Virus record (IMG/VR): IMGVR_UViG_3300046804_004556 | Span: 1 to 56,823 of that record | Direction: 5' to 3' (one strand) | Source of the DNA: a virus | Lineage: Duplodnaviria; Caudoviricetes | Length of the DNA: 56,823 nt | Part shown: in pieces, positions 9,083 to 51,314 of the stretch | How positions within the stretch are numbered: position 1 is the stretch's first letter | Layout: each line of letters begins with the position of its first letter | Program-made: the position numbers and the translations under genes | The notes under the pieces: model-generated | The model's input: only the letters and a program-made list of their open reading frames with translations | The model's database searches: none | Told to the model about the DNA's origin: nothing

Positions 9083-9105
9083 GTTTTTAATTTTTTAATA
9101 TCCCA

Positions 9106-10188: not shown

Positions 10189-10191
10189 ATA

Positions 10192-10974: not shown

Positions 10975-10975
10975 G

Positions 10976-32427: not shown

Positions 32428-33705
32428 TTATTCGATAGATAATAAACTCATATCGAATTTAGGATTGTTAACTTTTGAAGAAGGGGTAATGTCGACAAAT
32501 TCTTTAATATATAATTTGCAATTTCCTGATTCATATTCACCGGGTTCTGCCATATTTTTTAGATGTCTAAGATTTAATAGTGTTTCTTGTCCCAAGAAAT
32601 TAAAAGCGGAGCTATCAACGTCTAATTCTATTTTAACATTATATTTTTCAGGTTCTCCTATTAAAAATATGTCTTCATAATTTATTTGATTATAGAATTT
32701 TTTAGAATTCTGCCAATCATCTTCACTGAATTTTAATAGTTGATTTGCTGGATCATTTATATTTTTTACCATGTCTAACAACTCTAATTTCATATCATCT
32801 GTTTCGATCCAAACTCTACTAAAAAAAGGCTCTGTTTGAAATGCTGCTTGTATTGATTTGTTTCGATCTCCTTTTATTACTAGATCTATATCGTATTTTT
32901 TAAGTTTCATTTCTCCATGAGAGAAATTTCCCCACTTTTTAACAAACTTTCTCAGTTCTATCTGATCAGCTATAGATTGCAATACAGTACGATCTTGTGC
33001 AAGTTTGTCTTGAGTATCAAACCAATTCTTACCTCTTGAAGAAACACAACTGAAATGGTATACGTTTGCTTTAAACGTTTGTTTTATTTTTATTCCACTA
33101 TTTATAAACCTCAGTAATAAATCTGAATCTTCTCTAGATCTTCTAAATAGAGTATCGTACCCTCCAACTTGAAGCCAAACTTTTTTATAAAATGTAAAAG
33201 GCGCAAAAAAGTATGATAATGTTTTATCTTCTTTTACTGTTTCAGAAAATACCATAAAATTTTCCCAATCGAATAAATTAGGATCAATACCAAAATCTCT
33301 AGTTATTGTTTTATCAGATTCTCCGTGGAGTGGTGGTTCTATTCTCGTAGCGCTTAATATACAATCATCTTCTAATTCAGATAACACATCTAAATCGTAA
33401 TTTTTGCTAATCACCATATCTGATTGCAAATAACTAACTATGTCGTGCTTTGCTAATTCTACTAATAAATTGTTATTTCTAGAATATCCTACACAGGGAT
33501 GTAACTTGTGTGTAATGATTTTTAAATCAGCAAAGTATTGTTTTTGATCTTTTAAATATTGTACTGTTCCTTCGTTATCTGAATCAACAAATATTAGTAT
33601 CTCGTGTTCCTTACCATATAAATTTTCTTTTAGAGATTTCAAAAGAAGTTTAACGTGATCAAGAGTGTTAACTGATGTGTTAATTATAAAACTTATATTT
33701 TTCAT
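32428..33705 (-). CDS. GT2-family glycosyltransferase
   Basis: ISFII, FVD, GY....N, YLQSDM, GG.D..F....EDSD...R, VYHF. Confidence 0.8.
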   Translation of the reverse strand: MKNISFIINTSVNTLDHVKLLLKSLKENLYGKEHEILIFVDSDNEGTVQYLKDQKQYFADLKIITHKLHPCVGYSRNNNLLVELAKHDIVSYLQSDMVISKNYDLDVLSELEDDCILSATRIEPPLHGESDKTITRDFGIDPNLFDWENFMVFSETVKEDKTLSYFFAPFTFYKKVWLQVGGYDTLFRRSREDSDLLLRFINSGIKIKQTFKANVYHFSCVSSRGKNWFDTQDKLAQDRTVLQSIADQIELRKFVKKWGNFSHGEMKLKKYDIDLVIKGDRNKSIQAAFQTEPFFSRVWIETDDMKLELLDMVKNINDPANQLLKFSEDDWQNSKKFYNQINYEDIFLIGEPEKYNVKIELDVDSSAFNFLGQETLLNLRHLKNMAEPGEYESGNCKLYIKEFVDITPSSKVNNPKFDMSLLSIE

Positions 33706-34472
33706 TTTAATTTATTATGTACTTCTTTAATACCGTATTCTATTCCTAACCATTCGATATTAGGTGACCAAATATTAGTGCCGTAGTAGTGATCTCCCAT
33801 TGAATCTTTTTGTATGATTACTTCAACTTTATATTCATCCAAACAGTTTATCATATTAGCGACCCTTTCTAATGTGTAAATAAAAGGATAGCAGCATTCT
33901 ATTTCTTTTTGAGGATTTTTATCTACTATATAGTATTCTACTAATTTAATTAGATCTTTCATATAAAAAAAACTCATGTATTTATCTTGATGTATTTCTA
34001 TAGGTTTTCTTTGTATGTAATTTTTTATATTAGCTTTTATAAATCTAGTATCTAATTCATTTTCATCGAACACCGAATATATTCTTAAATTATAAAAACC
34101 TTCTTGATTGTTTATTGATTTCGCTATTATTGATTTACTGCATCCGTATGGAGTATCTACCATTGTTTTTTCGGCGCCTGATCCAAAGTGTATTAATCTA
34201 TCAAAATGATTTTTATTTTGCAATAAATTATAATACATTTGTAGATTATCGTCCATAACAGATGTTTCGTCTGTTTTTAATCTACTACCACCTCTTACCG
34301 CACAATGTATAACAACATCAAATAATCGATGTCTAAAAAAATTATTTGTAGCTTCTGAATTTGTGAGATCAAAATCTTTTCTACTTATAATCATCACCGA
34401 ATGCTTAGCTTTCAAAGCTTGATATAGACTTTTAGCTATGTATCCATTTCCACCTGTTATTAATATATTCAC
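33702..34472 (-). CDS. Extended SDR NDP-sugar reductase/epimerase (candidate YerF-like branch ketoreductase)
   Basis: ILITGG.GYIA, IHCA, YGCSK. Confidence 0.8.
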   Translation of the reverse strand: MNILITGGNGYIAKSLYQALKAKHSVMIISRKDFDLTNSEATNNFFRHRLFDVVIHCAVRGGSRLKTDETSVMDDNLQMYYNLLQNKNHFDRLIHFGSGAEKTMVDTPYGCSKSIIAKSINNQEGFYNLRIYSVFDENELDTRFIKANIKNYIQRKPIEIHQDKYMSFFYMKDLIKLVEYYIVDKNPQKEIECCYPFIYTLERVANMINCLDEYKVEVIIQKDSMGDHYYGTNIWSPNIEWLGIEYGIKEVHNKLK

Positions 34473-35467
34473 TTTTTTAATTTTTGTGCTATTTCTAATA
34501 TTAGATCTTCTTGTCCAGCAACTAATTTTCTATTTCCTAATTCAAATATCAATGATGAATATTCGATACCATATAATTTTGAAGCTTTTATTATTGGTTT
34601 TTCAAATCCTGAGAAAAGCCTATGCAGTCCTGTTAGTATATTTACTGGGGTGGATATAGGAGCTGATGGTATTAAATAGTCCATAACCTTATCTGCTTCT
34701 ATTATCACCTTCTGAAAATCTATTCCTAATTCGTATCCGCTCTTTTCTAATACGGGTATCAGCATTTCTAAATGGGCATTTCCTGCGCCTGCTCCAAACC
34801 CTCTAATACATGCATCTATGTATTTAGCACCGTAATTTACAGCTGTCAATGAATTTGCTATTGCCAACCCAAGATTATCATGAGCGTGAAAACCTATATC
34901 GATCGTCAAACTATCTTTTAATGCAGACACTCTTTCATAAACATCTTTTGGAAGATAAGTTCCTGTGGAATCCATAATTACTACAGCTTCTGCACCATAA
35001 TCTTGCATATATTTTGCATTCTCAACAAGAGTTTTTACGTCTGCTAGTGCTGACATCATTAATACACCTATGACTGTCTTTCCTTTATTTTTTAAATATT
35101 CTATATGGGATTTAGATAATGTTCCTTCTGTACAATGCGTAGCAACTCTAAACACATCTACGCCTATATCTATTGCTCTGTTTACATCTTTTTGTATCGT
35201 CGCCAATCCAGGTATTATATGAATACCTAATTTAGATTTATTTAGATTTTCTTTAGCAACTGACAACATATCTGTATCAGAATGTGGAGATAGACCTATA
35301 AGTAAAGAAGACGCGCCTATTCCATTGCCATGTCCAACTTCAACAATTGGTATGCCAGCACTTTCTGCAAATTGACAGTATCTTTTAATCTGATCTAAAT
35401 TTAATGTGTGTTTCACTGCATGATTACCGTCTCTTAGAGAAGAATCTGTTATTACAATATTATTCAT
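34469..35467 (-). CDS. dmpG: 4-hydroxy-2-oxovalerate aldolase (DmpG/MhpE family)
   Basis: D.SLRDG.H, EVGHGNG.GASS, RVATHCTE, H.H.NLGLA.ANS, G.GAGAGNA, VAGQED. Confidence 0.9.
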   Translation of the reverse strand: MNNIVITDSSLRDGNHAVKHTLNLDQIKRYCQFAESAGIPIVEVGHGNGIGASSLLIGLSPHSDTDMLSVAKENLNKSKLGIHIIPGLATIQKDVNRAIDIGVDVFRVATHCTEGTLSKSHIEYLKNKGKTVIGVLMMSALADVKTLVENAKYMQDYGAEAVVIMDSTGTYLPKDVYERVSALKDSLTIDIGFHAHDNLGLAIANSLTAVNYGAKYIDACIRGFGAGAGNAHLEMLIPVLEKSGYELGIDFQKVIIEADKVMDYLIPSAPISTPVNILTGLHRLFSGFEKPIIKASKLYGIEYSSLIFELGNRKLVAGQEDLILEIAQKLKK

Positions 35468-36315
35468 GATATTAATTTTTTAGTTATTTCAATAGCAGCG
35501 CAATTAATAATATCAAGATTGCCTGCATATTCTGGTAAATAATCTCCCGTACCTTTTACTTTTATACTCAATACCAATACATCATCATTTATGACTGGAG
35601 GTAAAACTAATTCGTAATAAGGTATATAATTTTTTAATTCTTTAATTTTTCTGTATATGTCTTCTACTAATGGACCGAAGTCAATACTTTTAAACTTTAA
35701 GAACATTGTAGTTTGCATGTCTACACATGGTTCCGCTGGATTAAGATTGAGTATCACTTTGCAATTTTCACATTTTGTGAATTTTCTTATAGCCATTTCT
35801 GTTGTATGAACATAACTATCGATGTTTATCCTTGTAGCCATTCCTGCGCTCTTAGATGCGATTTGAGAAACTACCTCAATATATTCTAAACTATCGCAAT
35901 ATTTTGATATAAGATTTAACATGGGCATTGATGCTTGTCCTCCGCATGTAATCATATTCACATTATCGTTTTCAACAATCATTTCTGGATTTATGCTTGG
36001 TACACATAGTGGACCAACTTTTGCGGGAGTAAGATCAATTACTTTTATTCCTTGTTCTTTAAAAATAATTGCATGCTGCTTTGCGTCTTCTGCACTAGTA
36101 CAATCATATACTACATCACAGCATTTTGGATTGTCTAAGAAATATTTTATGCCTTGATCTGTTACGTTGACTCCTTTGGATTGAGCGATTCTAATTCCAT
36201 CTGAATCTAATCTTCTACCTGCAAAAATAACAGGCTTTATAAAATCTGTTTTTAGAATCTTAAGTAATAGATCTGTTCCAATATTACCAGTTCCTATAAT
36301 TCCTGCTTTTATCAT
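35464..36315 (-). CDS. dmpF: Acylating acetaldehyde dehydrogenase (DmpF/MhpF family)
   Basis: IIG.GNIGTDL, IDLTPA, NVNM.TCGGQA (catalytic Cys), GDYLP.YAGNLDI. Confidence 0.9.
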   Translation of the reverse strand: MIKAGIIGTGNIGTDLLLKILKTDFIKPVIFAGRRLDSDGIRIAQSKGVNVTDQGIKYFLDNPKCCDVVYDCTSAEDAKQHAIIFKEQGIKVIDLTPAKVGPLCVPSINPEMIVENDNVNMITCGGQASMPMLNLISKYCDSLEYIEVVSQIASKSAGMATRINIDSYVHTTEMAIRKFTKCENCKVILNLNPAEPCVDMQTTMFLKFKSIDFGPLVEDIYRKIKELKNYIPYYELVLPPVINDDVLVLSIKVKGTGDYLPEYAGNLDIINCAAIEITKKLIS

Positions 36316-38087
36316 CTTTTTATTTTTTTAGATTTGTGACTTATTCCTATAATCATATTATTTTCAACTTCATCTAATGAAAGTAGTGGCGACATTTCCT
36401 CTATTGGAGGAGATAGTATAGAAAAGTCTTCGTTTAATACTCCTTTAACTTTTGGAATGAAATCTTGTTCAGGATCCATAAAAACTTCTAAGCAAGCTGC
36501 TCCTTCGCAATTAATAAAATCCAACATTGTTTCTTCAAAACTTTCCCAATTGTTTAAAGAATAATATTCATATCCAAAAGCCGTCATTAATTTGTTGTAG
36601 TTCGGTAAACCTATTCCAGTTTTTTTATCTACGCTTACATAATGTTTATCAAATAACATTTTTTGTGTATGCTTAATCATCAAATAACCATCATTATTAA
36701 AAATGATTATTTTTATCGGTAAATTATTTTCTATAACAGTATGACACTCTTGTAAATTCATCATCATTCCTCCATCGCAATTTAAACACAAGACAGGTTT
36801 CGTTGGACAAGCTAATTGAGCGCCGATTGCTCCAGCTATTCCATAGCCCATTTCCCCCAATCCTAGAGAAGTAAACATTATTTGATCTTTTTTCAAACGT
36901 ATCGCTTGATGACCACTTAATAATGCTGTTCCCATATCTGTAACAATGATATGGTCATCTTTTAAGTATTCTGACATCTTATCAATAAACTTATAAGAAT
37001 TTATATATCCGTTATCTACGTGTTCATCATTTACTATAGGAAACTTTATTTTTGTATTATCACAATATTTTATCCAATCTTTTTTATAAGAATTGATTTC
37101 AACCTTATTTAGTGATTGAATAATTTTTTTGCAGTCTTGTTTTATGTAATGAACAGGATATTTTTGACCTTCATTTTCGTCTATGTCTACCACAATAATT
37201 TTTGCATCTCTTGCAAATTGGCTGAAGTCATAACCTACTTGAGGAAGAGCTAGTCTACTTCCTAATACTACAACTAAGTCAGCATTCTGAACTATGAAGT
37301 TAGCACATCTTTGTCCATATATGCCAAATCTTCCATAGAAATTTGGATTATCTGACTCTAATAAATCTATTCCTGACCATGTTAATAATGTTGGTATTTT
37401 CAATGTCTTAACAAGCTGATTAAATTCTTTTTTTGAATTAGATAATCTAACTCCATTGCCACCTAGTATTACTGGTCTTTGAGAATTATTTATCATTTCC
37501 ACTATATAAGTAACATCAACATCATTATTGAACTTATGATCAGGATTTCTCCAAACTCTTTTAGTTACGAGTTTCGATTGTAAATTAAATGGCACATCTA
37601 ACCAACAAGGTCCTGGTCTATCACTAACAGATTTTTCAAATATGTGTTCTAAGACATCTTGAATATTCATATCATCATCAAATGCTATGGACTCTTTAGT
37701 AACGTCTTCTAACATTTTTGTTATATTTAAGCCTTGAGTACCGTACATACGTAATCTACTATGATCTTTAACATAATTGATTGATTCTTGCCCAGAGATT
37801 ATAATTCCCGGTATTGAATCTGCCCAATTACTAACTACTCCAGTAACAGCATTGGTTGCGCCTCCTCCAGCTGTAACAATTGCGGCTGATAATTTTCCTG
37901 ATGCTCTGTAATATGCACCCATCGCCATCACAGCGGCTTGTTCATGATGAGTGTTTATTATTTTCGTGTATCCTAATTTATCTATAGAATCAAATATGTG
38001 TGAATTAGCTGATCCTATGATACCAAATACAGTATCGATCTCTTTCTCTTTTAAAAACTCCGCTATTAAATCACTAACTTTTACCAT
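36312..38087 (-). CDS. ThDP-dependent acetolactate-synthase-fold carboligase (YerE/ErwE-like)
   Basis: HHEQAA (catalytic Glu), W.DS.P...ISGQ, GLG.MGYG, DGG.MMNLQE...NN.GY..I. Confidence 0.85.
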   Translation of the reverse strand: MVKVSDLIAEFLKEKEIDTVFGIIGSANSHIFDSIDKLGYTKIINTHHEQAAVMAMGAYYRASGKLSAAIVTAGGGATNAVTGVVSNWADSIPGIIISGQESINYVKDHSRLRMYGTQGLNITKMLEDVTKESIAFDDDMNIQDVLEHIFEKSVSDRPGPCWLDVPFNLQSKLVTKRVWRNPDHKFNNDVDVTYIVEMINNSQRPVILGGNGVRLSNSKKEFNQLVKTLKIPTLLTWSGIDLLESDNPNFYGRFGIYGQRCANFIVQNADLVVVLGSRLALPQVGYDFSQFARDAKIIVVDIDENEGQKYPVHYIKQDCKKIIQSLNKVEINSYKKDWIKYCDNTKIKFPIVNDEHVDNGYINSYKFIDKMSEYLKDDHIIVTDMGTALLSGHQAIRLKKDQIMFTSLGLGEMGYGIAGAIGAQLACPTKPVLCLNCDGGMMMNLQECHTVIENNLPIKIIIFNNDGYLMIKHTQKMLFDKHYVSVDKKTGIGLPNYNKLMTAFGYEYYSLNNWESFEETMLDFINCEGAACLEVFMDPEQDFIPKVKGVLNEDFSILSPPIEEMSPLLSLDEVENNMIIGISHKSKKIKR

Positions 38088-39076
38088 ATAAACTTATCTT
38101 TGTAATAATCTACAATATTTTGTATTTCTTCATTAAAAGAAATCTGTGGTGACCAACCTAATGCTCTTAATTTAGAATCATCTAATGCGTATCTTACGTC
38201 TTGTCCTGGACGATTACATGAAAAATCAATATAATCATCTTTATGTTTAAAATCTTCCCAATTTTCTACACCGATATATTTTGATATTACACTTTTAACA
38301 GTGTCAATATTTTGTTGCTCGAATCCTCCAGCTATATTATATATTTCTCCTATTTGTCCCTTTTCTATAAGTGTAATAACAGCTCTTGCAGTATCTGATG
38401 CGTGTAACCAATTTCTATACGGTTCTCCATTATTGTGAATTGGAATTTTTCTACCTAAATTTAAACACTTGACTGCTTTTGGTATTAATTTCTCTACATA
38501 CTGACCAATTCCGTAATTGTTAGTTGGTCTTATTATCATGTAAGGAACGTTATGTGTTCTTCCCCAAGCCATTATAAGCATATCTGCTGCTGCTTTTGTT
38601 GCTGAATAAGGATTGCTTGGTTTTAGTATATCTAATTCTGTATGTGCTCCTGATTCTATATCCCCGTATACTTCATCAGTGCTTAAATGTATGAGTACTG
38701 GTTTTGATGAATTTTCGCCTCTATGATTTTTTATTAGTTCAAGTATATTATGAACTCCATCAATGTTTGATCTAACAAATTCGAAGCTACTAGCAATACT
38801 ATTTCCTACGTGAGTCTCTGCGGCTGTATTGATGATATAATCGCAATCATACAAAAATTTTAGATCATTTATATCGCAATGAACAAATGAAAAATTTGGG
38901 TGTTTTTCAAACCTGTTTAAAAGACTCTTATTGGCTGCATAAGTCATTTTATCTACGCCTTTTACATACCAACCTTTTTCTAAACACTGTGTTGTTATAT
39001 AAGATCCTATGAATCCTAAACAACCAGTTACATACACTATTTTTTTACCATCATTTTTTTTATGTATCTCTCCCAT
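38081..39076 (-). CDS. rfbB: NDP-glucose 4,6-dehydratase (RmlB/RfbB-like)
   Basis: TG.LGFIG, DK.TYA, AAETHV..S, STDEVYG, PSNPYSATKA, NNYG..Q..EKLIP, RPG.D.RY. Confidence 0.85.
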   Translation of the reverse strand: MGEIHKKNDGKKIVYVTGCLGFIGSYITTQCLEKGWYVKGVDKMTYAANKSLLNRFEKHPNFSFVHCDINDLKFLYDCDYIINTAAETHVGNSIASSFEFVRSNIDGVHNILELIKNHRGENSSKPVLIHLSTDEVYGDIESGAHTELDILKPSNPYSATKAAADMLIMAWGRTHNVPYMIIRPTNNYGIGQYVEKLIPKAVKCLNLGRKIPIHNNGEPYRNWLHASDTARAVITLIEKGQIGEIYNIAGGFEQQNIDTVKSVISKYIGVENWEDFKHKDDYIDFSCNRPGQDVRYALDDSKLRALGWSPQISFNEEIQNIVDYYKDKFIW

Positions 39077-39849
39077 AATATGTCTTCTATTATATTGTAT
39101 TTTAAAGTTCTATTAAAATTATCGATAATTGCCTCTTCTTTAGACAAATATAATTCAGGTGTTAATAAATTTGGATCGAAAGAATCATCGAGTTTTATTA
39201 TTCCATCTATATTAAAATAATCTCCTATATTTGGATCTCCATGATAAATCGGTATAGTTCCACAAGCAAAACAATCAAGTATTTTTTCGCTCCAATATCC
39301 ATCATAAGATGCATTTTCCATTGTGACAGAGAACATGTAATCCGCTAATGCGTCTTCTTTTTTATTAAATTCTCTAATTCCTCTACCGAATAAATCAACT
39401 TTATCTTTTAATTTATCAGCCCAATGTAACCTATATAAGTGACCCTCGCATTGAGTTTTATTTGAAGTTATCATCGAACACAATCTTGTTTTAGGGTAGC
39501 ACTCAGGATTTTCTATCCAATATCCAGATGGAGGAAGATAATAGAAATTATCAGCTAAACAAGATATAGATTTGTCGTGAGTTATTAAAAACTCATATGC
39601 ATTTGATATTTCTTTACTTTGTTCTTTTATCTTCTTTATTACTTCTGGGATTATTGCGGATGATTCTACTATCCATGCTATTTTCTTCGTGTTATATGTA
39701 GAATTTATATTTTTTACTATATCTTCATCTACAAAAAAAGTTATGTCTTTTATTTGATTTTTAGACCATGTAAAATATGTTGGAATTTTCCAAAGTGTAG
39801 ACGAATACGCGTGTTGAAATCCTCCTCCTATTAATCCTACTTCTATCAT
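39037..39849 (-). CDS. GT10-like alpha-1,3-fucosyltransferase-family protein
   Basis: Y.FS..MEN....Y.SEKI.D.F..GTIPIY.G; likely start MIEVG at 39849. Confidence 0.7.
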   Translation of the reverse strand: MIEVGLIGGGFQHAYSSTLWKIPTYFTWSKNQIKDITFFVDEDIVKNINSTYNTKKIAWIVESSAIIPEVIKKIKEQSKEISNAYEFLITHDKSISCLADNFYYLPPSGYWIENPECYPKTRLCSMITSNKTQCEGHLYRLHWADKLKDKVDLFGRGIREFNKKEDALADYMFSVTMENASYDGYWSEKILDCFACGTIPIYHGDPNIGDYFNIDGIIKLDDSFDPNLLTPELYLSKEEAIIDNFNRTLKYNIIEDILWERYIKKMMVKK

Positions 39850-42011
39850 ATAACAATCCAATTTTGTGGAATTAAATCTCGTGTATCATTATTTTTTAAA
39901 GCTTCTCCAAACCATTTTTTGGGAGCAATAACTTTTTTATTTTCATTCGTATTTAACCATGCTCCCCACCAACTAAAGCTACTGTTAGCTATTATATTAT
40001 GCTTACACATTGACATTATATATAGATCAATATAATCATTTTCTCCATCAATTATGTTATATTTCTTATCAGTGAAATTATTTCTAATAAAATCTTTATC
40101 ATCACCAAACACTAAAAAAGTCTCAGACTCTGGGAAATGGGATATAGCTTCTTTATAGTAATCTATATTGCATATGGGATGATGATCTTGACTTACCATG
40201 TAATCTCCTCTTCTTATATGAATACTTGTTGGATTATTTTGCAATACATGTCCATATTTTTTATTTATGTAATCTACTACTTCTTCATTCGGAGAAAATA
40301 AATCAATTATTTTTTTCTTATTATGTGCAAAATACTTTTCGCTTTGAAAATGGCCTTCTATATATAAATTTTTATCAAACTTATAGGATATGGGTTTGTA
40401 AGAAAAGCTCTGTTCTTTCCATACATCAAAGTTAGAAGGATTATCAATAAAATCTATTTTAGAGTATATGTTATTTTTATATAGCGTTGGGCTACCATTT
40501 TCACCTAATAAAGATGTATACACTCCATTAGCTTCGCTTATTTTAATATCGCATTTATTGTCTATCGCAAAAGAATATGCTGTAGCTATTTGAAACATTT
40601 GATTACCCAATCTGCCTAAAATTCTTGGGATAACATATTTGTCTGAGTTATCTTTTATGACTGAATATGGTCTTATGCTTTTTATGTAATTCTCTCCATC
40701 TCTTCCGTTTATATAATCTTGATGATTTCTATCAGAGTTTGGTTTAGATTCATTATATACATAAGTAACAAAATTCATTACACCTATTTTATTTTTAGGA
40801 GATTGTTCCATAGCGGCGCACATAATTGCAACATCATCTCCGAATCTGATCCATTCTCCATTGTGTTGTAGATCTATTTCTGATATATTCTTGAACAGAA
40901 ATCCTTTCATTGTTTTTAAATGACTCGCAGTATATGGATATTGTCGATATAGGTTAAATTTATGTATGTCTTCAGGGTGATCTTTACCGTGTGATGGAGA
41001 TTCTAATAAACTCGGGTAACATACCATTTTTGAATATGCAACCCATACACTATTTTCTATATAGTATTCTACAACTTTTTGAAATACATCATTATATGCT
41101 ATCCAATCATCTCCATCTATAAAAACGACTATATCATTATCATCTATAAAATCTTTTCTATACTCCATAAAAGAATAAGATTTGCTCTTATTTTCTTTAT
41201 GACAAATAAGTTTGAATTTTGAATTATTTGATATTAGATAGTCTGCTATTCTTGCTGTATCATCAGAAGAATTATCATCTATATATAAAACTTCGTAGTT
41301 TTTATATTTTTGATCTAGTATACTCTCTATATTAGTTTGAACCCAGTCTTCATTATTATATGTAGTAACAATAACTTTTATTTTTGGAGCTTTTACATAT
41401 AACGCATCTCCCCAATTTGCATGAGTCCATGCAGTTTCTATTCTAATAAATCCGTATTCTGATAGATAATCATCTATATTATCTACGATATCACATCCTT
41501 CATACAGCTCTTCTTTGTTTATTTCTGTATAAATGTAATCTATTTTTTCTAAATACTTTCCTAAACTTTTTATAGCTCTAAGTTCTATTCCTTGTAAATC
41601 TAAATTAATGAAATTGTACTTATCAATATCTAAGTTATTTTCGTTTATTATTGAATCTAATCGCTTGGTTATTACTTCTATTTTTTGTACAACGTCTATC
41701 TGAGGATAGAAATTTTTATGATTTTTTAGTTTTAATATAGACGAACTCTCTCCGTTATTAGTAATATTAAATTCTATTTTTTCTCCATCTATATCGTTTA
41801 TCGCATCATTAATAACGATACTTCCTACTTCATTTTCTAAATATTTTTTACAAAAATCGCTTTTTGCTGGATTGGCTTCTATCCATACGATGTCGCTTAT
41901 GTTCAATTTTTTATATAAAGAAAACTCTTCTGCTTCATGAGCTCCGCAGTGAATTATACCTTTTATGTTTAATTTATATTTCTGAATTAGGTGGTTAAGA
42001 TCTATTAACAT
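39846..42011 (-). CDS. Triple fusion of FkbM methyltransferase, GT2 and GT11 alpha-1,2-fucosyltransferase-like domains
   Basis: IIH.GAH..E, EANP, N.D.QG.EL; TTYN...IDD.SSD...DGDDW; GRLGNQMFQ, FQSEKYF, HIRRGDY, IIANSSFSWWGAW. Confidence 0.85.
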   Translation of the reverse strand: MLIDLNHLIQKYKLNIKGIIHCGAHEAEEFSLYKKLNISDIVWIEANPAKSDFCKKYLENEVGSIVINDAINDIDGEKIEFNITNNGESSSILKLKNHKNFYPQIDVVQKIEVITKRLDSIINENNLDIDKYNFINLDLQGIELRAIKSLGKYLEKIDYIYTEINKEELYEGCDIVDNIDDYLSEYGFIRIETAWTHANWGDALYVKAPKIKVIVTTYNNEDWVQTNIESILDQKYKNYEVLYIDDNSSDDTARIADYLISNNSKFKLICHKENKSKSYSFMEYRKDFIDDNDIVVFIDGDDWIAYNDVFQKVVEYYIENSVWVAYSKMVCYPSLLESPSHGKDHPEDIHKFNLYRQYPYTASHLKTMKGFLFKNISEIDLQHNGEWIRFGDDVAIMCAAMEQSPKNKIGVMNFVTYVYNESKPNSDRNHQDYINGRDGENYIKSIRPYSVIKDNSDKYVIPRILGRLGNQMFQIATAYSFAIDNKCDIKISEANGVYTSLLGENGSPTLYKNNIYSKIDFIDNPSNFDVWKEQSFSYKPISYKFDKNLYIEGHFQSEKYFAHNKKKIIDLFSPNEEVVDYINKKYGHVLQNNPTSIHIRRGDYMVSQDHHPICNIDYYKEAISHFPESETFLVFGDDKDFIRNNFTDKKYNIIDGENDYIDLYIMSMCKHNIIANSSFSWWGAWLNTNENKKVIAPKKWFGEALKNNDTRDLIPQNWIVI

Positions 42012-42860
42012 TTATGAATTATTTTTATAGAAATCTACTAATTTATGCACAATTTCATCAATATTATATTTGCAGTCGTATCCATAATTTTGAAGTTTTG
42101 TTGTATCTAAATATGAATTTTTTACTTGCACGATATTGTGAAAATGGGTTGGATCTATGTTTATTATTTTCGATTTCGATTTTGAATATTTTATTGCTTT
42201 TTTTACTATATTTAAAAATAGATAAGGTTTCCCGCTTCCTATGTTTATTATTTCATTAAGAGGAGCTTGATTTATGCAATGATATATGGCTTCGCAAACA
42301 TCATCAACATATATGTAGTCTCTTAAAACATTACCTCCATAATATAATTCTACGTCTTTATTTTCAACTATCTCTTTTATTAAGAATTGTAAAGCATTTT
42401 TTTTCTTTGATATTTTATAATCCCCTTCTCCTAATACATTCGCTAATCTGAATATTCTATACTTTATATCGAAGGTATTACAAAAACTAATTATTAGCTG
42501 TTCTGCACATCTTTTAGTTATAGAATAAAAACCTGTTGGATTACACTCAAGATCATCTTCTTTAAATGGTGTTTTATTATTCTGTCCATATACAAACCAT
42601 GAACTAACGAAGTTAAACACTGTATCTTTATTATGCTTAAAATTGTCTAACACATTCATTAGTACTTTTAAATTAGTATCTATATCAACGTGAAGATCAT
42701 TATGAATATTATAGTTATCTATGGTACTTATCAAATAGAGTATATTATTTGATTTTGGTGAATAATCACTTCTATCATTTATGATAACTTCTTGATCATA
42801 CATTTGACAAAATCTTTTGCCTATAAAACCAGTTCCTCCGAATATATTTAATTTTTCCAT
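42012..42860 (-). CDS. NAD-dependent NDP-sugar epimerase/4-reductase
   Basis: GGTGFIG, SS..VYG, YSITK, RDYIYVDD, NIGSG. Confidence 0.8.
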   Translation of the reverse strand: MEKLNIFGGTGFIGKRFCQMYDQEVIINDRSDYSPKSNNILYLISTIDNYNIHNDLHVDIDTNLKVLMNVLDNFKHNKDTVFNFVSSWFVYGQNNKTPFKEDDLECNPTGFYSITKRCAEQLIISFCNTFDIKYRIFRLANVLGEGDYKISKKKNALQFLIKEIVENKDVELYYGGNVLRDYIYVDDVCEAIYHCINQAPLNEIINIGSGKPYLFLNIVKKAIKYSKSKSKIINIDPTHFHNIVQVKNSYLDTTKLQNYGYDCKYNIDEIVHKLVDFYKNNS

Positions 42861-42863
42861 ATT

Positions 42864-43508
42864 TTAAATTTCATTTAATAACGATATTTTATTTATCGAT
42901 TCGTTTGTTAATTTTCCATGGAATCCAAAAGTCTTTTCTAAATTATATTCGCACTCTGGAATATTATGCTCTAAGGAGAATTTTGAAGCTATCTCGATTG
43001 GTGCATATTTCATTCCATTTCTTACGAAAATATCATAGTAATAATTTGTGACTAATACATCATTATGCATGCCTTCAATATAATCTACTTTTTTCTCTAA
43101 ATCAAGAAATTTTTTGCTTTTTAAAACGAATCCTCCATTTCCAACTCTATTTTTCTTACACCAATCTAAATCTGGCCATGGCGCTCCTATATAATCGTAT
43201 TCATAAAATTCATTTATCCACATGTGCGGATTTATTATGAATCCATCATCTTGTATAGATAACATATAATCAGTTTCTACATAGTCTGATAAATTCTCCA
43301 TTGCGAATCTATTTATCGACGAGTGTGATTGCTTTTCTATTTCTATGAAATCTATATCTTGAGTTATATTATCTGGTCTTTCGTTGGATATCAGTATGAT
43401 TTTTCCAAATTGTATGTGCTTAGAACTGTATAGTAATGCTTTAACAGAATTAGATGGATTTACGCAATCTATTGCAAGTAACGTTATATTTTTTAAATTT
43501 ATTTTCAA
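42864..43508 (-). CDS. DUF5672-like putative glycosyltransferase
   Basis: Q.DG.I....W..EF..YDYIGAPW...VGNGGF.L.S...FS.E...FGFHG. Confidence 0.7.
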   Translation of the reverse strand: MKINLKNITLLAIDCVNPSNSVKALLYSSKHIQFGKIILISNERPDNITQDIDFIEIEKQSHSSINRFAMENLSDYVETDYMLSIQDDGFIINPHMWINEFYEYDYIGAPWPDLDWCKKNRVGNGGFVLKSKKFLDLEKKVDYIEGMHNDVLVTNYYYDIFVRNGMKYAPIEIASKFSLEHNIPECEYNLEKTFGFHGKLTNESINKISLLNEI

Positions 43509-44272
43509 TTTATGTATACTGATTTTGAAGTGTTATAATCTGATCTTTTCTTTATTAAATCTAGTACAGATTCATCGTTCTTTTGATCTTCTGTAGGAGC
43601 AAAGAGTGCTCGACTTCTTTTGTCCACATCTTTAGGAGGTTCGCATAAATAATAAATCGCCAAACTTTTTCTATACTTATTTTCTGGGCAATTCACTTGT
43701 CTACTTAGTCCGTGCCATGAATTTTGAGTGGTATCGAAAAGAACTGCTTTATTGAAACCTACAGAAATTTCTTTTTCTAAAACAGAAGAATCACTATTCC
43801 AAAGACCAAAATGTCCTCCATAAGAATCGTTCCAATCTTCACACAAATATATAATTAAATTTAACTTTCTTTGCAATTCTAAATGTGGGTGCATAGAATA
43901 ATCCAAATGAGGATTTAGTTTACCACCATTAGCGTGTATGTGCCAGCCTCCTCCATGAAGTCCATGATCTGGATATAATTTTGTTCCAAATATATTAGAT
44001 AATAACTCTAAGACTACTGGGGAATTTAAAAAACTAAATAGTTGGTAAGTGTTTGTTGGAAATTTTCTCCAATCACTTAACAATTTTTTATCTTCTATTT
44101 TATTTTTATAATTAAACCAAATATCATCGTTAAAATCGGGGAATTCGTTTGATAGACTCTTGGCAAAATCTTCACTTAAAAAATTATCTATAATAGCATG
44201 ATCGTACGGAGAAGTTTCTATTTGTAGATTAGCTAGAGATTTTATTATTTTATTTCCAATAAAATTATTCAT
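43505..44272 (-). CDS. 2OG-Fe(II) oxygenase (prolyl-4-hydroxylase-like)
   Basis: PY.H.IIDNFL, GGG.H, HLD (HxD), SWHG, R.S.A.YY. Confidence 0.8.
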   Translation of the reverse strand: MNNFIGNKIIKSLANLQIETSPYDHAIIDNFLSEDFAKSLSNEFPDFNDDIWFNYKNKIEDKKLLSDWRKFPTNTYQLFSFLNSPVVLELLSNIFGTKLYPDHGLHGGGWHIHANGGKLNPHLDYSMHPHLELQRKLNLIIYLCEDWNDSYGGHFGLWNSDSSVLEKEISVGFNKAVLFDTTQNSWHGLSRQVNCPENKYRKSLAIYYLCEPPKDVDKRSRALFAPTEDQKNDESVLDLIKKRSDYNTSKSVYIN

Positions 44273-44282
44273 TATATCATTT

Positions 44283-45275
44283 TTATTTTTCGAAATACGG
44301 TTTACATAAATTATTTATATATGTCTCTTCTATTTCTTTCTGTCTCTCTGTACATCCATAAGCCATATGTATTCCACAACAGTTTCTAACATATGCAGGT
44401 TTTTTCTTTTGCGCTAAAGAGTATACATTCATCTGTCCTTCATCCCATCCATCTCTAAATGTAGATTGACTTTCTTTCCAAAAAGAGGTTTTTATAAAAG
44501 TTAAATTATTACAAAAATATACACTATTATGATCCATAATATGATATTCTCTCTTATCAAAAATTAAATTCTTATTTTCTATTAATTTTTGTGTTATGTA
44601 CGAATTGTATGTATAAGAGAATCTAGCTGGATGGAATCCTTTTGCTAACGACATATAATTTGGAAGATTTATATTTTCTATAGGATTAAACTTATCAATA
44701 AAATTCCAATATTCGTTGTAATCCCATTCAGATTTTGAATCTATATATTGTTGAACTTTTCTATAGTCGCAACCCCATATATGTAAATTGTTTTTTACAC
44801 CTTCTGATAGGAATATTTTATAAGCCTCTAACTTCTCTTCTTCACTTAAAAAATCTTCAATAAAAAAATCCACTGTAGGTATACCATTTTGAATTATCGG
44901 TATGAGTACGGATATATCTTCTTTATCTAGAACAGATACATTTTCTATCATATAGTCCCATACGTATGAATTAATAAATGTATCATCATCCCATTTACAC
45001 GAATATTCGCAATCTGATTCGTGCGCTAATTGTACTTTCTTAATATATTCATCATCAGTCATACACTGAATAGTGATATCTATATTTTGGTACTTTTTGT
45101 CTGTTAGCTCTTCTACCCATTTACTCTCATCTAATGCATTAATGTATACATGCAAAGATATTTTTTCTAAATTGTCTTTTTTTATTTTAGAGAATTGATC
45201 TAAACACATTCTAGTAAACCAAAATCTATCTTTGTAATGTGCACCGTTAGCCGTAAATAAGTTTATTTGTATCAT
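44283..45275 (-). CDS. Putative GT-A fold glycosyltransferase
   Basis: K.DDD motif, context, H..YG. Confidence 0.5.
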   Translation of the reverse strand: MIQINLFTANGAHYKDRFWFTRMCLDQFSKIKKDNLEKISLHVYINALDESKWVEELTDKKYQNIDITIQCMTDDEYIKKVQLAHESDCEYSCKWDDDTFINSYVWDYMIENVSVLDKEDISVLIPIIQNGIPTVDFFIEDFLSEEEKLEAYKIFLSEGVKNNLHIWGCDYRKVQQYIDSKSEWDYNEYWNFIDKFNPIENINLPNYMSLAKGFHPARFSYTYNSYITQKLIENKNLIFDKREYHIMDHNSVYFCNNLTFIKTSFWKESQSTFRDGWDEGQMNVYSLAQKKKPAYVRNCCGIHMAYGCTERQKEIEETYINNLCKPYFEK

Positions 45276-46063
45276 TGTGTATCTATTATTTTATATTCTA
45301 AATTAGGATTTAAGCATCTTATGAAGAAATTCACATTGGATCCTGTGCAACATAATAAAAAATTTGTTTTTGATAGCAGATATGCCTCTATTAAAACTTC
45401 TTCTCCGATAAAATATTTGTTATGAAAATATGCATTGTGATAATGTAGTGGACCTTCATTTATACTTCTAAATGTTGGATACAATATGACTTTATCTCCA
45501 AATATATTTTTTATATAATCAACTCGACTTTGTTCATCAGATGTTACGAATATTGCATCATAGTCTTTTAATTTTTCAGCAATTTCATTCACATACATGT
45601 GCATAGGTTTCTTATCCGGATGATCTGTTCCTCTGCAATGCAGACCTAACACTTTCTTATTAGAAAAATTTTCATTATAAAACGAATCTAATTTTTCTTG
45701 TACGTGAGGTAATAGCTTTACATGTTTTTCTACTATTTGTGCATATTCTAGTCTTCTCTTTTTATATATTTCTGGATCTAGAAACACATCTCTAAATTCA
45801 CTAAAATCATCATGCAACAATCCCACTTCAGATAATATCTGATCTTTATCTGGTATAGTATTAGTGTGAGGTTGTTCAAAATAATAATCCCAAACATTGT
45901 ATATCCCTTGTTGACCGTGAATGTCATAATCGTAATAACAACATTCTTCTCCAAATAATACGTAATACTTTTCATTTGGATAATGGTACATTCCTCTTAA
46001 AGTCTGCCAAATAAATGCAAACAGTCCTGAATTTGGTTGTGTTGGATGGAGTAGTCTATACAT
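45272..46063 (-). CDS. NodZ/GT23-like fucosyltransferase-family protein
   Basis: SGLF, LG.H.RGTD, IFVTSDE, E.YLLS....L....SNV. Confidence 0.65.
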   Translation of the reverse strand: MYRLLHPTQPNSGLFAFIWQTLRGMYHYPNEKYYVLFGEECCYYDYDIHGQQGIYNVWDYYFEQPHTNTIPDKDQILSEVGLLHDDFSEFRDVFLDPEIYKKRRLEYAQIVEKHVKLLPHVQEKLDSFYNENFSNKKVLGLHCRGTDHPDKKPMHMYVNEIAEKLKDYDAIFVTSDEQSRVDYIKNIFGDKVILYPTFRSINEGPLHYHNAYFHNKYFIGEEVLIEAYLLSKTNFLLCCTGSNVNFFIRCLNPNLEYKIIDTQ

Positions 46064-46072
46064 ATAAACTTT

Positions 46073-47056
46073 TTAATTTAATACTTTATTCATATAGTTT
46101 AACCATATGTCTTTATGGTAATAAGATTTATATGAATCTTTAGCCATTTTACTACAATGCTCGTAAAAATCTTTATTTTCTTTTAAGTTCTTAGCTAAGT
46201 TTCTTGCAGAGTAAATATCTTCCACATCTACTGATAATAGTGGATGACATGCTGATTGCGTATCTACTTCTTTGTTTCCTATACACGGTATTCCAAAATA
46301 CGCGCAGTTTAGACTAAAAGTTCCTGCTGCAACCGTTGGCATTAAATGCACAGCGTATTTGAATTTAGATAATTCTTGCATCCATTGATTCCATAGCATT
46401 CTTGGAAAGTGATTTATATTTTCAAGTTGATCTTCGTATTGTCTTTTTGAGTGAGAATCTTGAGCCCAAATAGGCACACCGAATTCTTGAGCTACGGTAT
46501 AGCTTTCGAATCCTCCATACCATCTAGAGAAGTTACCACCAATGATCGCCAGATCTGTTTTAATAGGCTCTATATCTTTTATTAGAGTTTCTATCATAAG
46601 CGTTTGCATTACGTGAACAGGCTTATCAGGAAACATTCCTATATAATATCTTCTGTCTTGTTGATTATGCGCAAATATGCTATCGCATTCACTTATAAGA
46701 TTATAGAAGTTTATCTGATCTACTATCTCGTAATCATTAAATAACCAGTGAGGACCTTCTTGAACAAAGTGTACTTTTTTATTATTTATTTTAAGTACTC
46801 TTAAAAAATTAGAATATAATAAATTGCTTACTGGATTTATTTTATCAACGAGTTTTGATCCAATTGCATTTAGATAGACTTCTCCTTTTGGGAATATTAA
46901 AAAAACGTGGTCGTAATCTATAACATTTTCGTACGTAGAAATATGATAATGGTCAGCATTAAGTGCATTCATCCAAGCGAACTCCGTTCTCATATTTGGA
47001 TGATCCTCTTGAATCTTCCCTTGAAATGCCATTTCTGTTAAAAAAGCTATTCTCAT
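46073..47056 (-). CDS. Putative GT-B glycosyltransferase
   Basis: C-terminal AGTF.LNCA..G.PCIG nucleotide-sugar-binding-like motif; context. Confidence 0.55.
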   Translation of the reverse strand: MRIAFLTEMAFQGKIQEDHPNMRTEFAWMNALNADHYHISTYENVIDYDHVFLIFPKGEVYLNAIGSKLVDKINPVSNLLYSNFLRVLKINNKKVHFVQEGPHWLFNDYEIVDQINFYNLISECDSIFAHNQQDRRYYIGMFPDKPVHVMQTLMIETLIKDIEPIKTDLAIIGGNFSRWYGGFESYTVAQEFGVPIWAQDSHSKRQYEDQLENINHFPRMLWNQWMQELSKFKYAVHLMPTVAAGTFSLNCAYFGIPCIGNKEVDTQSACHPLLSVDVEDIYSARNLAKNLKENKDFYEHCSKMAKDSYKSYYHKDIWLNYMNKVLN

Positions 47057-50870: not shown

Positions 50871-51314
50871 TTAAATAGAAAAAAATCCAATATAATCTAA
50901 AGCTTCGACGAAATCTTTTTCAAATGACTTAAGACTTGATGAATCTGATTTATGTGTTTGATTTTTGAATCTAGGATTTTGTCTGTCTTCTTCGCTCAAT
51001 TCTACGCTTTTTATTGCGGACCATGTCCATGTTTCTTTTGATTTTCCGTTAGCAAATACTGTTCCTTTCCCCATTATATTTATTGACTGAGGATACCAAT
51101 ATCTACCGTTATCATCTAATCTCTTAATGTCTTTATACAATTCAGGTAGAGTTTCTTCATATTGCTCTATATCGAACTCTCCTATTTTCATTAAATCGTT
51201 TGACGAATATCCGCATCCGAAACAAGAGTACGAATTATGTTTTTCGTTTAGAGGAACAACATAACAAGCCGCTTTTTCTTTACAGAGAGGACATTCAACT
51301 AATTTATCAATCAT
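50871..51314 (-). CDS. Zn-ribbon hypothetical protein
   Basis: CPLC...CFGCG. Confidence 0.6.
   Translation of the reverse strand: MIDKLVECPLCKEKAACYVVPLNEKHNSYSCFGCGYSSNDLMKIGEFDIEQYEETLPELYKDIKRLDDNGRYWYPQSINIMGKGTVFANGKSKETWTWSAIKSVELSEEDRQNPRFKNQTHKSDSSSLKSFEKDFVEALDYIGFFSI

Follow-up and report, generated by a model that had tools for sequence, protein, structure and literature searches.

A phage cassette with a probable role in making an erwiniose-type, C-branched deoxysugar

The window, meaning the whole stretch of 56,823 nucleotides analysed here, carries a cassette of six co-directional, overlapping genes at 32428-39076. In order, these encode a 4,6-dehydratase, a thiamine diphosphate (ThDP) enzyme, DmpF, DmpG, a short SDR and a GT2 glycosyltransferase, all on the minus strand (Table 1). 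A preliminary description of this DNA had listed the same run of genes, and both coordinates and families were confirmed. It had also reported four ATGA overlaps of 4 bp. Three of them read exactly so when the letters are checked (36312-15, 35464-67 and 33702-05), and the one at 34469-72 is GTGA, GTG being the start codon of the SDR. The dehydratase and ThDP genes overlap by 7 bases. Two further claims also held: an RfbH/E1 3-dehydrase lies upstream, and a Pfam scan of the 89 ORFs of the window found no aromatic meta-cleavage genes (dioxygenase, hydratase or hydrolase). In addition, the window encodes endolysins, virion proteins and nucleases.

Table 1. Position and assignment of the cassette, the remaining glycan island and a flanking backbone marker.
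Feature	Position	Strand	Basis or remark
GT2 glycosyltransferase, 425 aa	32428..33705	-	PF00535 at residues 13-176
Short extended-SDR, 256 aa, GTG start	33702..34472	-	Rossmann motif, YxxxK
Class II pyruvate aldolase, DmpG/ErwI type, with DmpG communication domain	34469..35467	-	TIGR03217, PF07836
Acylating acetaldehyde dehydrogenase, DmpF/ErwJ type	35464..36315	-	TIGR03215
ErwE/JanthE-like three-domain ThDP-dependent carboligase, putatively C4-branching	36312..38087	-	Pfam/NCBIfam, tree
RmlB-type NDP-hexose 4,6-dehydratase	38081..39076	-	Pfam/NCBIfam; would supply the 4-keto-6-deoxy sugar
Other glycan-tailoring genes, interval between E1 and cassette	39037..46063	-	Pfam
Phage-specific protein, 4-base overlap with the E1 stop	46073..47056	-	Homologs in 13 of 64 viral loci
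E1-type PMP/[2Fe-2S] NDP-4-keto-6-deoxyhexose 3-dehydrase (RfbH/DdhC type)	47053..48366	-	NF011936
GDP-L-fucose synthase (Fcl-like)	48372..49283	-	Best solved relative human GDP-L-fucose synthase, 264 bits
Gmd	49270..50247	-	TIGR01472, 404 bits
PD-(D/E)XK nuclease, backbone marker flanking the island	54559..55461	-	PF12705, 80 bits

In terms of family, the ThDP enzyme falls below every NCBIfam equivalog cut-off for acetohydroxyacid synthase (AHAS), the best score being 325 bits where 738 are required. The match to JanthE (8RPH) covers the full length at 548 bits, while AHAS and PpYerE reach 231-234. JanthE (Janthinobacterium sp. HH01; PDB 8RPH/8RPI/8RPJ) is the closest solved structure, and the two enzymes share an identical CDG ThDP-binding stretch and a conserved Lys aligning with JanthE K567 (PMC12188165). 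The catalytic Glu is present as well. The Oxalobacteraceae homologs that we fetched adjoin DmpFG; the locus of JanthE itself lies outside this set.

The phylogeny that had been proposed against YerE and AHAS was run with FastTree (113 rows) and IQ-TREE in quick mode (68 rows), AHAS being the outgroup. The viral ThDP enzymes form a single clade with support of 100 and 99, respectively. In both trees its sister is a bacterial, DmpFG-linked clade, AHAS is distant, and a YerE-like clade with a GDG motif and no DmpFG is basal. All 29 viral rows and all 46 bacterial rows linked to DmpFG have the CDG motif; 25 of the 27 bacterial rows without DmpFG carry GDG. Identity to the window enzyme is 50-72% for viral and 34-51% for bacterial sequences. 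As judged from sequence, the enzyme is YerE/ErwE/JanthE-like, of the YerE-like lyase subclass. AHAS (IlvB/IlvI/IlvG) was rejected on the unmet cut-offs, the separate branch and the lack of an AHAS small subunit, ilvC/D or other ilv genes among the 89 ORFs. JanthE is promiscuous and accepts pyruvate among many donors (PMC12188165), so clade membership by itself does not reveal the donor. A preference for (4R)-4-hydroxy-2-oxopentanoate over pyruvate would fit, indirectly, the link between the CDG clade and DmpFG and the aldolase signature described next.

As for the aldolase and dehydrogenase, DmpF scores 315 bits with TIGR03215 (cut-off 282) and 182-236 bits with solved relatives. Its catalytic Cys motif aligns with theirs and is kept in 47/47 viral and 48/48 bacterial homologs. 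DmpG scores 333 bits with TIGR03217 (cut-off 286) and retains the equivalents of Arg17, Asp18, His21, His200 and His202, that is, the metal-binding and catalytic residues including His-x-His. At two other positions it departs from BphI, with His for Leu87 and Phe for Tyr290. This pair is present in the window, in 45/45 viral and in 46/46 bacterial homologs, thus in all 92 sugar-linked DmpG examined. Leu/Tyr is the pair in four solved catabolic enzymes and in a Salmonella reference. Specificity for 4R has been obtained in BphI with the variants L87N/Y290F and L87W/Y290F (PMC3962088). The His/Phe signature thus mimics an engineered 4R-specific aldolase and fits a dedicated 4R-forming enzyme, in line with the 4R donor of ErwE, so that the DmpG product is probably 4-hydroxy-2-oxovalerate in its 4R form. 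Catabolic DmpFG, BphIJ and HsaFG have the same fold and catalytic residues, and their aldehyde-channelling communication domain is kept in the phage pair. The phage pair differs in its sugar-biosynthesis context, in the two substitutions and in a direction that would be synthetic. The two substitutions, together with the lack of meta-cleavage genes among the 89 ORFs, speak against a catabolic meta-cleavage DmpFG/BphIJ pair.

The dehydratase scores 305 bits with the dTDP-glucose type model TIGR01181 but only 82 with that of the CDP type. Among solved structures, its best matches are dTDP-glucose 4,6-dehydratases throughout (top 2HUN, 239 bits), and it contains the Rossmann, T-D-E and YxxxK motifs. 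E1 reaches 463 bits with NF011936 (cut-off 423), and 346 bits with Yersinia E1 (3BCX) against 170 with ColD. Three traits were used to assign E1, namely His where other family members have the PLP lysine, cysteines for a [2Fe-2S] cluster, and about 437 residues. Aligned to 3BCX, the window protein shows this His and the Cys residues, and the signature of His and three Cys also occurs in 37 viral and 49 bacterial homologs. Overall, none of DmpF, DmpG, E1, the dehydratase or the SDR has lost its catalytic residues.

Among the 89 ORFs there is no ferredoxin, flavodoxin or E3 reductase, with thioredoxin the only related protein, and no nucleotidyltransferase. One of the five long relatives has a nucleotidyltransferase, and none of the five has an E3 (PF00175). 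E1 is thus the only member found in the window of the set for a CDP-3,6-dideoxy-4-keto acceptor (cytidylyltransferase, CDP-glucose 4,6-dehydratase, E1, E3). With an RmlB-type dehydratase and neither E3 nor nucleotidyltransferase in the window, the pathway would depend on the host and its carrier nucleotide is not fixed. Deoxygenation of the acceptor at C3 by E1 is graded only as likely, because E1 lies about 8 kb upstream of the cassette, beside Gmd and Fcl.

The AlphaFold model of the SDR (pLDDT 94.8) best matches NDP-sugar 4-keto reductases, namely GDP-fucose synthase, heptose C4 reductases and RmlD. When compared to the bacterial ErwF-like SDR of Flavobacterium undicola (locus L084), it shares only the Rossmann motif, and the two are not orthologous. 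Judging from the model, it would reduce the branch carbonyl in analogy to YerF/ErwF. In most groups the SDR comes immediately after the branching module, whose final gene is DmpG in 25, a distant ThDP class in 8, ErwE in 5 and transketolase in 3. The GT2 likely transfers the branched sugar. A second GT-A-like domain may make up its C-terminal half; for residues 200-425, ESM Atlas structure rows lead to phage glycosyltransferase clusters, which we take as a lead only.

The cassette and the remaining genes belong to an island of 22 kb with many soluble transferases. Gmd and GDP-L-fucose synthase (48372..50247) are a separate GDP-fucose branch of it. GT10-, GT11- and NodZ-like transferases were found by Pfam near these two genes. 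The interval between E1 and the cassette encodes a GT10-like protein, an FkbM-GT2-GT11 fusion (721 aa), an N-terminally truncated SDR, a DUF5672 protein, a 2OG-Fe(II) oxygenase, a 330-aa protein without assigned family and a NodZ-like protein. The phage-specific protein next to E1 has no Pfam or NCBIfam match. It is probably a GT1/GT4-like glycosyltransferase and not an E3 reductase; ESM Atlas features lead to phage "glycosyl transferase family 1" clusters, again a lead only. Membrane segments were predicted in none of the 21 island proteins tested, including the products of that interval, and no Wzx/Wzy/Wzz or other membrane protein was found in the island.

We compared 64 viral loci fetched by the ThDP protein, and 99 dereplicated groups for counts of the slot between dehydratase and SDR. 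The ThDP gene is present in 60 of the 64, the dehydratase in 56, DmpF in 47, DmpG in 46, the SDR in 44 and the GT2, downstream of the cassette, in 42, with order and strand shared. This recurrence is far beyond chance. The dehydratase is directly upstream of the ErwE-like gene in 38 of the 42 dereplicated groups with both. As for the slot, 37 of the 99 groups have the ErwE-like enzyme with DmpFG, and 4 have it with two HpaI-type pyruvate aldolases and an Fe-S protein. In 5 it stands alone without aldolase, another 5 have a distant ThDP enzyme with DJ-1, and 3 a split transketolase. By these gene orders, related phages exchange branching modules between dehydratase and SDR. The replacement of DmpFG by another family of pyruvate aldolase argues that the donor is an aldol product. 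The preliminary description had also called for a synteny check of dmpFG, ThDP and rfbH, which the counts given here and below provide.

Five long viral relatives (136-183 kb, rated 82-100% complete) carry the cassette. All five encode the T4-type capsid protein Gp23, four encode terminase, and one has terminal repeats. In each of them a homolog of the nuclease, 41-53% identical, is encoded 5-7 kb ahead of E1. The source is a large uncultured T4-like phage with its own erwiniose-type enzyme set.

The chemistry of this cassette is not a new pathway, as it has already been published for bacteria. In Pectobacterium atrosepticum SCRI1043, the erwiniose genes comprise ErwE (ThDP), ErwF (reductase), the DmpG-like aldolase ErwI and the DmpF-like acetaldehyde dehydrogenase ErwJ, and the scheme was partly tested in vitro (Steitz et al. 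2022, PMC9306805). ErwE takes 4-hydroxy-2-oxopentanoate, prefers the 4R donor and rejects pyruvate (PMC9306805). Likened by enzyme type, the phage shares a YerE-like ThDP enzyme, an aldolase, a dehydrogenase and a reductase with this operon. Both have an E1 3-dehydrase nearby and a glycosyltransferase downstream. The window thus holds the YerE-like enzyme, an adjacent DmpG with intact active site and an adjacent DmpF with catalytic Cys; neither an ortholog of the ErwF-type reductase nor the full CDP acceptor set was found in it. The known pathway runs on CDP sugars and uses a dehydratase of the CDP type, whereas the phage has the RmlB type, a non-orthologous 256-aa SDR, no E3 or cytidylyltransferase found, no Wzx/Wzy/Wzz, and a ThDP enzyme from a separate sister clade. 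The locus of F. undicola follows the same logic, with E3, nucleotidyltransferase, CDP-type dehydratase, ThDP enzyme, DmpF, DmpG, SDR and E1. In the yersiniose A pathway of Yersinia pseudotuberculosis (YerE/YerF), a ThDP enzyme likewise extends an NDP-3,6-dideoxy-4-keto sugar at C4, and the branch is then reduced. YerE uses pyruvate and has the GDG motif, the type that is basal in our tree and without DmpFG. The five phage groups with ThDP enzyme and SDR but no aldolase resemble this type.

We consider it probable that the genes at 39076-32428 form an erwiniose-type module of the phage itself, serving to make a C-branched deoxysugar, and infer the direction of flux, donor, acceptor, carrier nucleotide, product structure and glycan target as follows. 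The dehydratase would convert an NDP-hexose, probably host-made dTDP- or UDP-glucose, to the NDP-4-keto-6-deoxyhexose, and E1 would probably strip the 3-OH with electrons from a host reductase. DmpF would turn acetyl-CoA into acetaldehyde and pass it to DmpG, which would join it to pyruvate, giving 4-hydroxy-2-oxovalerate, probably the 4R enantiomer. The ThDP enzyme would decarboxylate this donor and put a 3-hydroxybutyryl unit on the C4 ketone; the new branch ketone would be reduced by the short SDR. Finally, the GT2 would move the 4-C-(1,3-dihydroxybutyl)-deoxyhexose into a glycan built by the soluble transferases of the island. The route to a C10 sugar in the preliminary description fits the published scheme as well as the families and residues of the ThDP enzyme, DmpF and DmpG. 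It is not a new inference, and the SDR is not orthologous to the ErwF-like reductase of bacteria.

The same branching could also take place on an NDP-4-keto-6-deoxyhexose, giving a 4-C-branched 6-deoxyhexose with its 3-OH, and E1 would then serve another sugar of the island. Translational coupling of dehydratase and ThDP enzyme through their overlap agrees with this, as do the distance of E1 and the lack of E3 in the window and the long relatives. Furthermore, a ColD-like dehydratase without the Cys insert replaces E1 in 13 related loci, and E1 is missing from the stretch covered in 11 of the 37 DmpFG groups. On the other hand, E1 is present in 5/5 long relatives and upstream of the RmlB-type dehydratase, always collinear, in all 52 dereplicated groups with both (directly adjacent in 10, including two DmpFG groups). 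The neighbouring Fcl is an ordinary GDP-fucose synthase, which needs no 3-dehydrase, and the characterised YerE/ErwE acceptors are all 3,6-dideoxy-4-keto sugars (PMC9306805, PMC12247030). Retention of the 3-OH is therefore unlikely in our view. A yersiniose-type product, with pyruvate as donor, a two-carbon branch and DmpF/DmpG serving, for example, acetaldehyde detoxification or pyruvate supply, appears very improbable. JanthE does accept pyruvate, and the five phage groups without aldolase would suit such a product. However, DmpF and DmpG sit between ThDP gene and SDR with 4-base overlaps in an arrangement recurring in 37 groups; ErwE rejects pyruvate, a different pyruvate aldolase family fills the slot elsewhere, and the His/Phe signature suits a 4R-forming aldolase.

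A reading as auxiliary metabolic genes (acetolactate synthase plus DmpFG catabolism of aromatics or acetaldehyde, with no link to sugars) has annotation on its side: the source annotations of ThDP homologs read "acetolactate synthase large subunit", and the NCBIfam titles for DmpF and DmpG refer to meta-cleavage. It is scarcely credible for a ThDP enzyme apart from AHAS and a DmpG without the catabolic Leu87/Tyr290 pair, inside an operon of sugar-nucleotide and glycosyltransferase genes, with no AHAS small subunit, ilvC/D or meta-cleavage genes among the 89 ORFs. Misassembly of bacterial DNA onto a phage, or a misclassified bacterial contig, had been raised as a concern as well. The G+C of the island is 28-33%, against 33-42% in the first 30 kb, and bacterial clusters of the same logic are common among the loci fetched. 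Nevertheless, five 136-183 kb relatives with the T4-type capsid protein carry the cassette at the same backbone position after the nuclease, so we see no chimera. The viral ThDP enzymes are closer to the window than the bacterial ones, and nothing close to the viral dehydratase, SDR or GT2 occurs in the 80 bacterial loci fetched, a set that does not contain the Pectobacterium locus. An artefact of this kind is extremely doubtful.

Lastly, to the erwiniose-type chemistry published for bacteria, the present analysis adds the viral ThDP clade, the DmpG His/Phe signature, the swapped slot, the combination of an RmlB-type dehydratase with a non-orthologous reductase, and the phage setting. Since the phage carries the enzyme set for a four-carbon-branched sugar, genes that look like those of amino-acid synthesis and aromatic breakdown most likely make a rare glycan sugar.

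All six genes that the preliminary description had placed in the cassette were found there and are assigned by profile scores (table below). The RfbH/DdhC-type 3-dehydrase (E1) is likewise present and scores above its cut-off. The four overlaps between the last five genes are all four bases long, as had been described; three of them read ATGA, while the one at 34469-72 is GTGA. The dehydratase and ThDP genes overlap by 7 bases. Absence of meta-cleavage genes was confirmed for the 89 scanned window ORFs, and no ilv genes occur among these ORFs either.

Features of the window discussed in the text
Feature	Coordinates	Strand	Profile scores
RmlB-type 4,6-dehydratase	38081-39076	-	dTDP-glucose model 305 bits, CDP model 82 bits
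ThDP enzyme, three domains	36312-38087	-	
DmpF	35464-36315	-	315 bits (cut-off 282)
DmpG with communication domain	34469-35467	-	333 bits (cut-off 286)
SDR, 256 aa	33702-34472	-	
GT2, 425 aa	32428-33705	-	
RfbH/E1	47053-48366		463 bits (cut-off 423)
GDP-fucose branch	48372-50247, 39037-39861, 45272-46063, 1246-2025	-	
282-aa extended-SDR-like protein	42012-42860	-	
721-aa fusion protein	39846-42011	-	
147-aa CHC2 zinc-finger protein	50871-51314	-	
ConA/laminin-G-like to 1947-aa protein block	8357-16819	-	
70-aa ORF, FlbD family match	2030-2242	-	Pfam 30.7 bits (cut-off 24.7)
Protein, function not assigned	29035-30114		

On sequence grounds, the window cassette is a predicted phage-borne variant of a published module, that of erwiniose. 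Steitz et al. identified the ThDP enzyme ErwE, the reductase ErwF, the aldolase ErwI and the acetaldehyde dehydrogenase ErwJ in Pectobacterium atrosepticum; by the main text of that paper, ErwE uses 4-hydroxy-2-oxopentanoate, prefers the 4R donor and rejects pyruvate (PMC9306805). The same text proposes exactly the route that had been inferred for the window, with a donor made by DmpFG and branching by the ThDP enzyme (PMC9306805). This match supports the mechanism. The claim that the chemistry is new does not hold, the route being already in print for bacteria (PMC9306805). What is new relative to the main text of Steitz et al., whose supplement may hold cluster details or aldolase residue comparisons, is that the module occurs in viruses, and broadly, along with its distinct parts list, an aldolase signature and a swappable slot. 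Compared with the erwiniose and other bacterial lipopolysaccharide pathways, the phage version is put together from a different set of parts. In its available text, a 2025 review catalogues YerE-like enzymes, and viruses come up there only as unexplored territory (PMC12247030). Literature searches turned up no description of a phage pathway of this kind.

The ThDP enzyme is set apart from acetohydroxyacid synthase (AHAS) by both scores and trees. Its best AHAS equivalog gives 325 bits against a cut-off of 738, and none reaches its cut-off. The closest solved structure is the YerE-type enzyme JanthE (8RPH; 548 bits, full length), with AHAS at 234 and PpYerE at 231 bits. JanthE is reported to carry an unusual CDG ThDP motif (PMC12188165, seen in part), which is also present in the window enzyme. 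Scanning genomes gave 80 bacterial loci with 34-51% identity to the window enzyme, except L116, a partial match with 56% identity; the Pectobacterium locus was not among them. DmpF and DmpG almost always lie beside the ThDP gene in bacterial loci of at least 42% identity, but not in those at 41% or below. The trees (113-row FastTree, 68-row IQ-TREE) were rooted on two AHAS sequences and leave out 23 near-duplicates and six sequences shorter than 480 aa (L060, L061, L062, L107, L123, L143); five further loci had no usable ThDP hit (L030, L055, L064, L065, L116). In the viral loci L060, L061 and L062, ThDP genes 35-42% identical to that of the window are split by stops into ORFs of 381-456 aa.

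The viral enzymes group together in a single clade (FastTree: 39 rows, support 100; IQ-TREE: 29 rows, support 99), which adjoins the bacterial DmpFG-linked clade, with AHAS as the outgroup. This answers the AHAS part of the phylogeny that had been suggested as a check. The basal position is taken by a GDG-type clade that lacks DmpFG. The CDG motif is found in 29/29 viral and 46/46 bacterial DmpFG-linked rows, and GDG in 25 of the 27 bacterial rows without DmpFG. One contig of the viral clade, L112, comes from a MAG assigned to Flavobacterium psychrophilum. The ThDP enzyme of L112 sits on a long branch, and the neighbouring genes are bacterial-looking (a CDP-type dehydratase, and an E1 with 42% identity). 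L112 may reflect phage-host transfer, or hint at the host.

In DmpF, the catalytic Cys motif is kept in the window and in all homologs (47/47 viral, 48/48 bacterial). The window DmpG keeps its Arg, Asp and His residues and the His-x-His metal ligands. In BphI, Leu87 and Tyr290 are reported to fix 4S stereospecificity; Y290F loses stereocontrol, and L87N/Y290F or L87W/Y290F cleave the 4R enantiomer only (PMC3962088, a review seen in part). At these positions, whose numbering was confirmed on the 1NVM alignment, the window DmpG has His83 and Phe285 in window numbering, and 45/45 viral and 46/46 bacterial sugar-linked homologs likewise have His and Phe; Leu and Tyr are found in four solved catabolic enzymes (8IH7, 4JN6, 1NVM, 4LRS) and in the Salmonella reference. 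Given the behaviour of the BphI variants, the natural His/Phe pair would fit an aldolase forming the 4R acid, the donor preferred by ErwE. The tyrosine is unmentioned in the main text of Steitz et al. (PMC9306805). The His/Phe signature offers a simple sequence test to tell ErwI-type aldolases of biosynthesis apart from the DmpG/BphI enzymes of catabolism, and suggests nature's way to the 4R aldol product that engineers reached by mutagenesis.

A scan of IMG/VR with the window ThDP protein returned 64 loci (35-72% identity), and a second scan with E1 gave 80 further loci. After merging near-identical stretches, the window and these 144 loci form 99 groups. The slot between dehydratase and SDR holds an ErwE-like enzyme with DmpF and DmpG in 37 groups, window included, which bears out the dmpFG-ThDP part of the synteny that had been proposed as a check. 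Other groups carry an ErwE-like enzyme with two HpcH/HpaI-type pyruvate aldolases and an Fe-S protein (4 groups), an ErwE-like enzyme without aldolase (5), a distant ThDP enzyme with a DJ-1 protein (5) or a split transketolase-like pair (3). Since another pyruvate aldolase family stands beside the same kind of ThDP enzyme, the replacement of DmpFG independently supports an aldol product as the donor. In most groups the SDR lies directly 3' of the last gene of the module, be it DmpG (25 groups), the distant ThDP enzyme (8), ErwE (5) or transketolase (3), and is not adjacent to any searched-for gene in 11 groups. The window SDR has the Rossmann motif and YxxxK. Its AlphaFold model (pLDDT 94.8; 25 sequences) matches GDP-fucose synthase, heptose C4 reductases and RmlD, and it is not orthologous to the ErwF-like SDR of one bacterial locus. 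In the swapped modules, nature offers a set of ThDP carboligases and aldolases with which tertiary alcohols could be made.

On the acceptor side, the dehydratase has its T-D-E and YxxxK residues, and its nearest solved relatives are all dTDP-glucose 4,6-dehydratases. The window E1 carries a His where the PLP lysine would stand, together with the Cys cluster. With Gmd and Fcl nearby, it could be read as ColD of a GDP-colitose route. This reading was rejected because E1 scores 346 bits against the Yersinia E1 and 170, half of that, against ColD, because it has the Cys cluster, and because the Fcl beside it is an ordinary GDP-fucose synthase (best solved match the human enzyme, 264 bits). E1 is tied to the RmlB-type enzyme rather than to Gmd, because it lies upstream of that dehydratase on the same strand in 52/52 groups having both on one locus; the two are directly adjacent in 10 groups, within 3 kb in 15 and 3-10 kb apart in 27, window among them. 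A ColD-like 3-dehydratase does replace E1 near a Gmd homolog in 13 related phage loci (L013-L018, L020, L023-L025, L029, L054, L059). These enzymes have His at the lysine position, no Cys insert and 28-32% identity to the window E1; the loci still carry a ThDP gene and, in most cases, the RmlB-type dehydratase. Deoxygenation of the acceptor at C3 is thus likely, though perhaps not in every phage. An E3-type reductase partner was found neither in the window nor in any of the five long relatives, and a nucleotidyltransferase, absent from the window, is found in one of the five, just upstream of its dehydratase. As neither was found in the window, the phage would have to draw NDP-hexose and electron carriers from its host. 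A 327-aa ORF overlapping the E1 stop was considered as a replacement for E3 and rejected, as it has no redox domain; its resemblance to phage GT1/GT4 transferases is a lead.

A chimeric assembly of bacterial DNA had been named as a way in which the reading might fail. The window is a viral contig rated 31% complete (56.8 kb, IMG/VR record). Endolysin-like, virion-structural, UvdE, HNH and PD-(D/E)XK genes all lie within the window, and nearly all of its ORFs are on the minus strand. Five of the 64 loci are contigs of 136-183 kb rated 82-100% complete, one with terminal repeats. Chimerism is very unlikely because these long relatives encode the T4-type Gp23 capsid protein (5/5) and terminase (4/5), and in each of the five a homolog of the PD-(D/E)XK nuclease flanking the island precedes E1 by 5-7 kb. 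Among GenBank phage records (INPHARED), none of the matches to the ThDP enzyme or DmpG is a true relative; all are below 37% identity, and several lie in bacterial contigs or ilv/leuA genes. In the five long relatives nothing matches the protein of unassigned function, and a tRNA search found none. The 70-aa ORF matching the flagellar FlbD family is odd for a phage. G+C is 28-33% in the glycan island (32000-56000) and 33-42% in window 1-32000.

The window also holds a separate GDP-fucose branch of Gmd, the GDP-fucose synthase (Fcl) and three fucosyltransferase-like proteins of the island (GT10, GT11, NodZ-like), which the Fcl fits; a 259-aa protein of this branch corresponds to ManC in its C-terminal isomerase/cupin part alone. 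The extended-SDR-like protein matches the Epimerase profile from about residue 87 onward and has no N-terminal Rossmann glycine motif. It also occurs at L150:17313-18164 and has homologs in L006, L035, L047 and L048; its truncation is no accident of the window contig, as 62-82% identity is kept in four related loci. The fusion protein joins an FkbM-type methyltransferase, GT2 and GT11 (alpha-1,2-fucosyltransferase-like), with a full-length match in 1/64 related loci. The CHC2 (primase-type) protein lies mid-island, between GT2 and two GT1 genes. The 8357-16819 block, with two ConA/laminin-G-like proteins, a BspA-type leucine-rich-repeat protein and the 1947-aa protein, is likely a host-recognition block, whose proteins are candidate glycan carriers or readers. 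The 1947-aa protein has weak tail-fibre and endosialidase-like matches; phage matches to it and to a GP88-like protein are weak and scattered only.

A simple hydropathy scan predicted no membrane segments in 21 island proteins, and Wzx, Wzy and Wzz are absent from the island; the bacterial locus compared has Wzz. These two absences hint at a soluble acceptor, e.g. virion proteins. Rather speculatively, this T4-like lineage might carry a self-contained soluble-enzyme glycosylation system around a hot-swappable ThDP slot, attaching differing rare C-branched sugars to virion proteins or another cytoplasmic acceptor, and not to the host lipid-linked O-antigen.

The mislabelling that had been foreseen is borne out for the ThDP gene: metagenome homologs, where named, are mostly called "acetolactate synthase", and a tally of auxiliary genes would place such homologs under amino-acid metabolism or aromatic degradation. 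The predicted acyl-branched sugar biosynthesis, described until now for bacterial lipopolysaccharides, turns up widely among large uncultured phages. Should the proposed glycosylation system exist, bacteriophages would have a counterpart to the autonomous glycan machinery that giant viruses possess, one that diversifies under pressure from hosts or predators.
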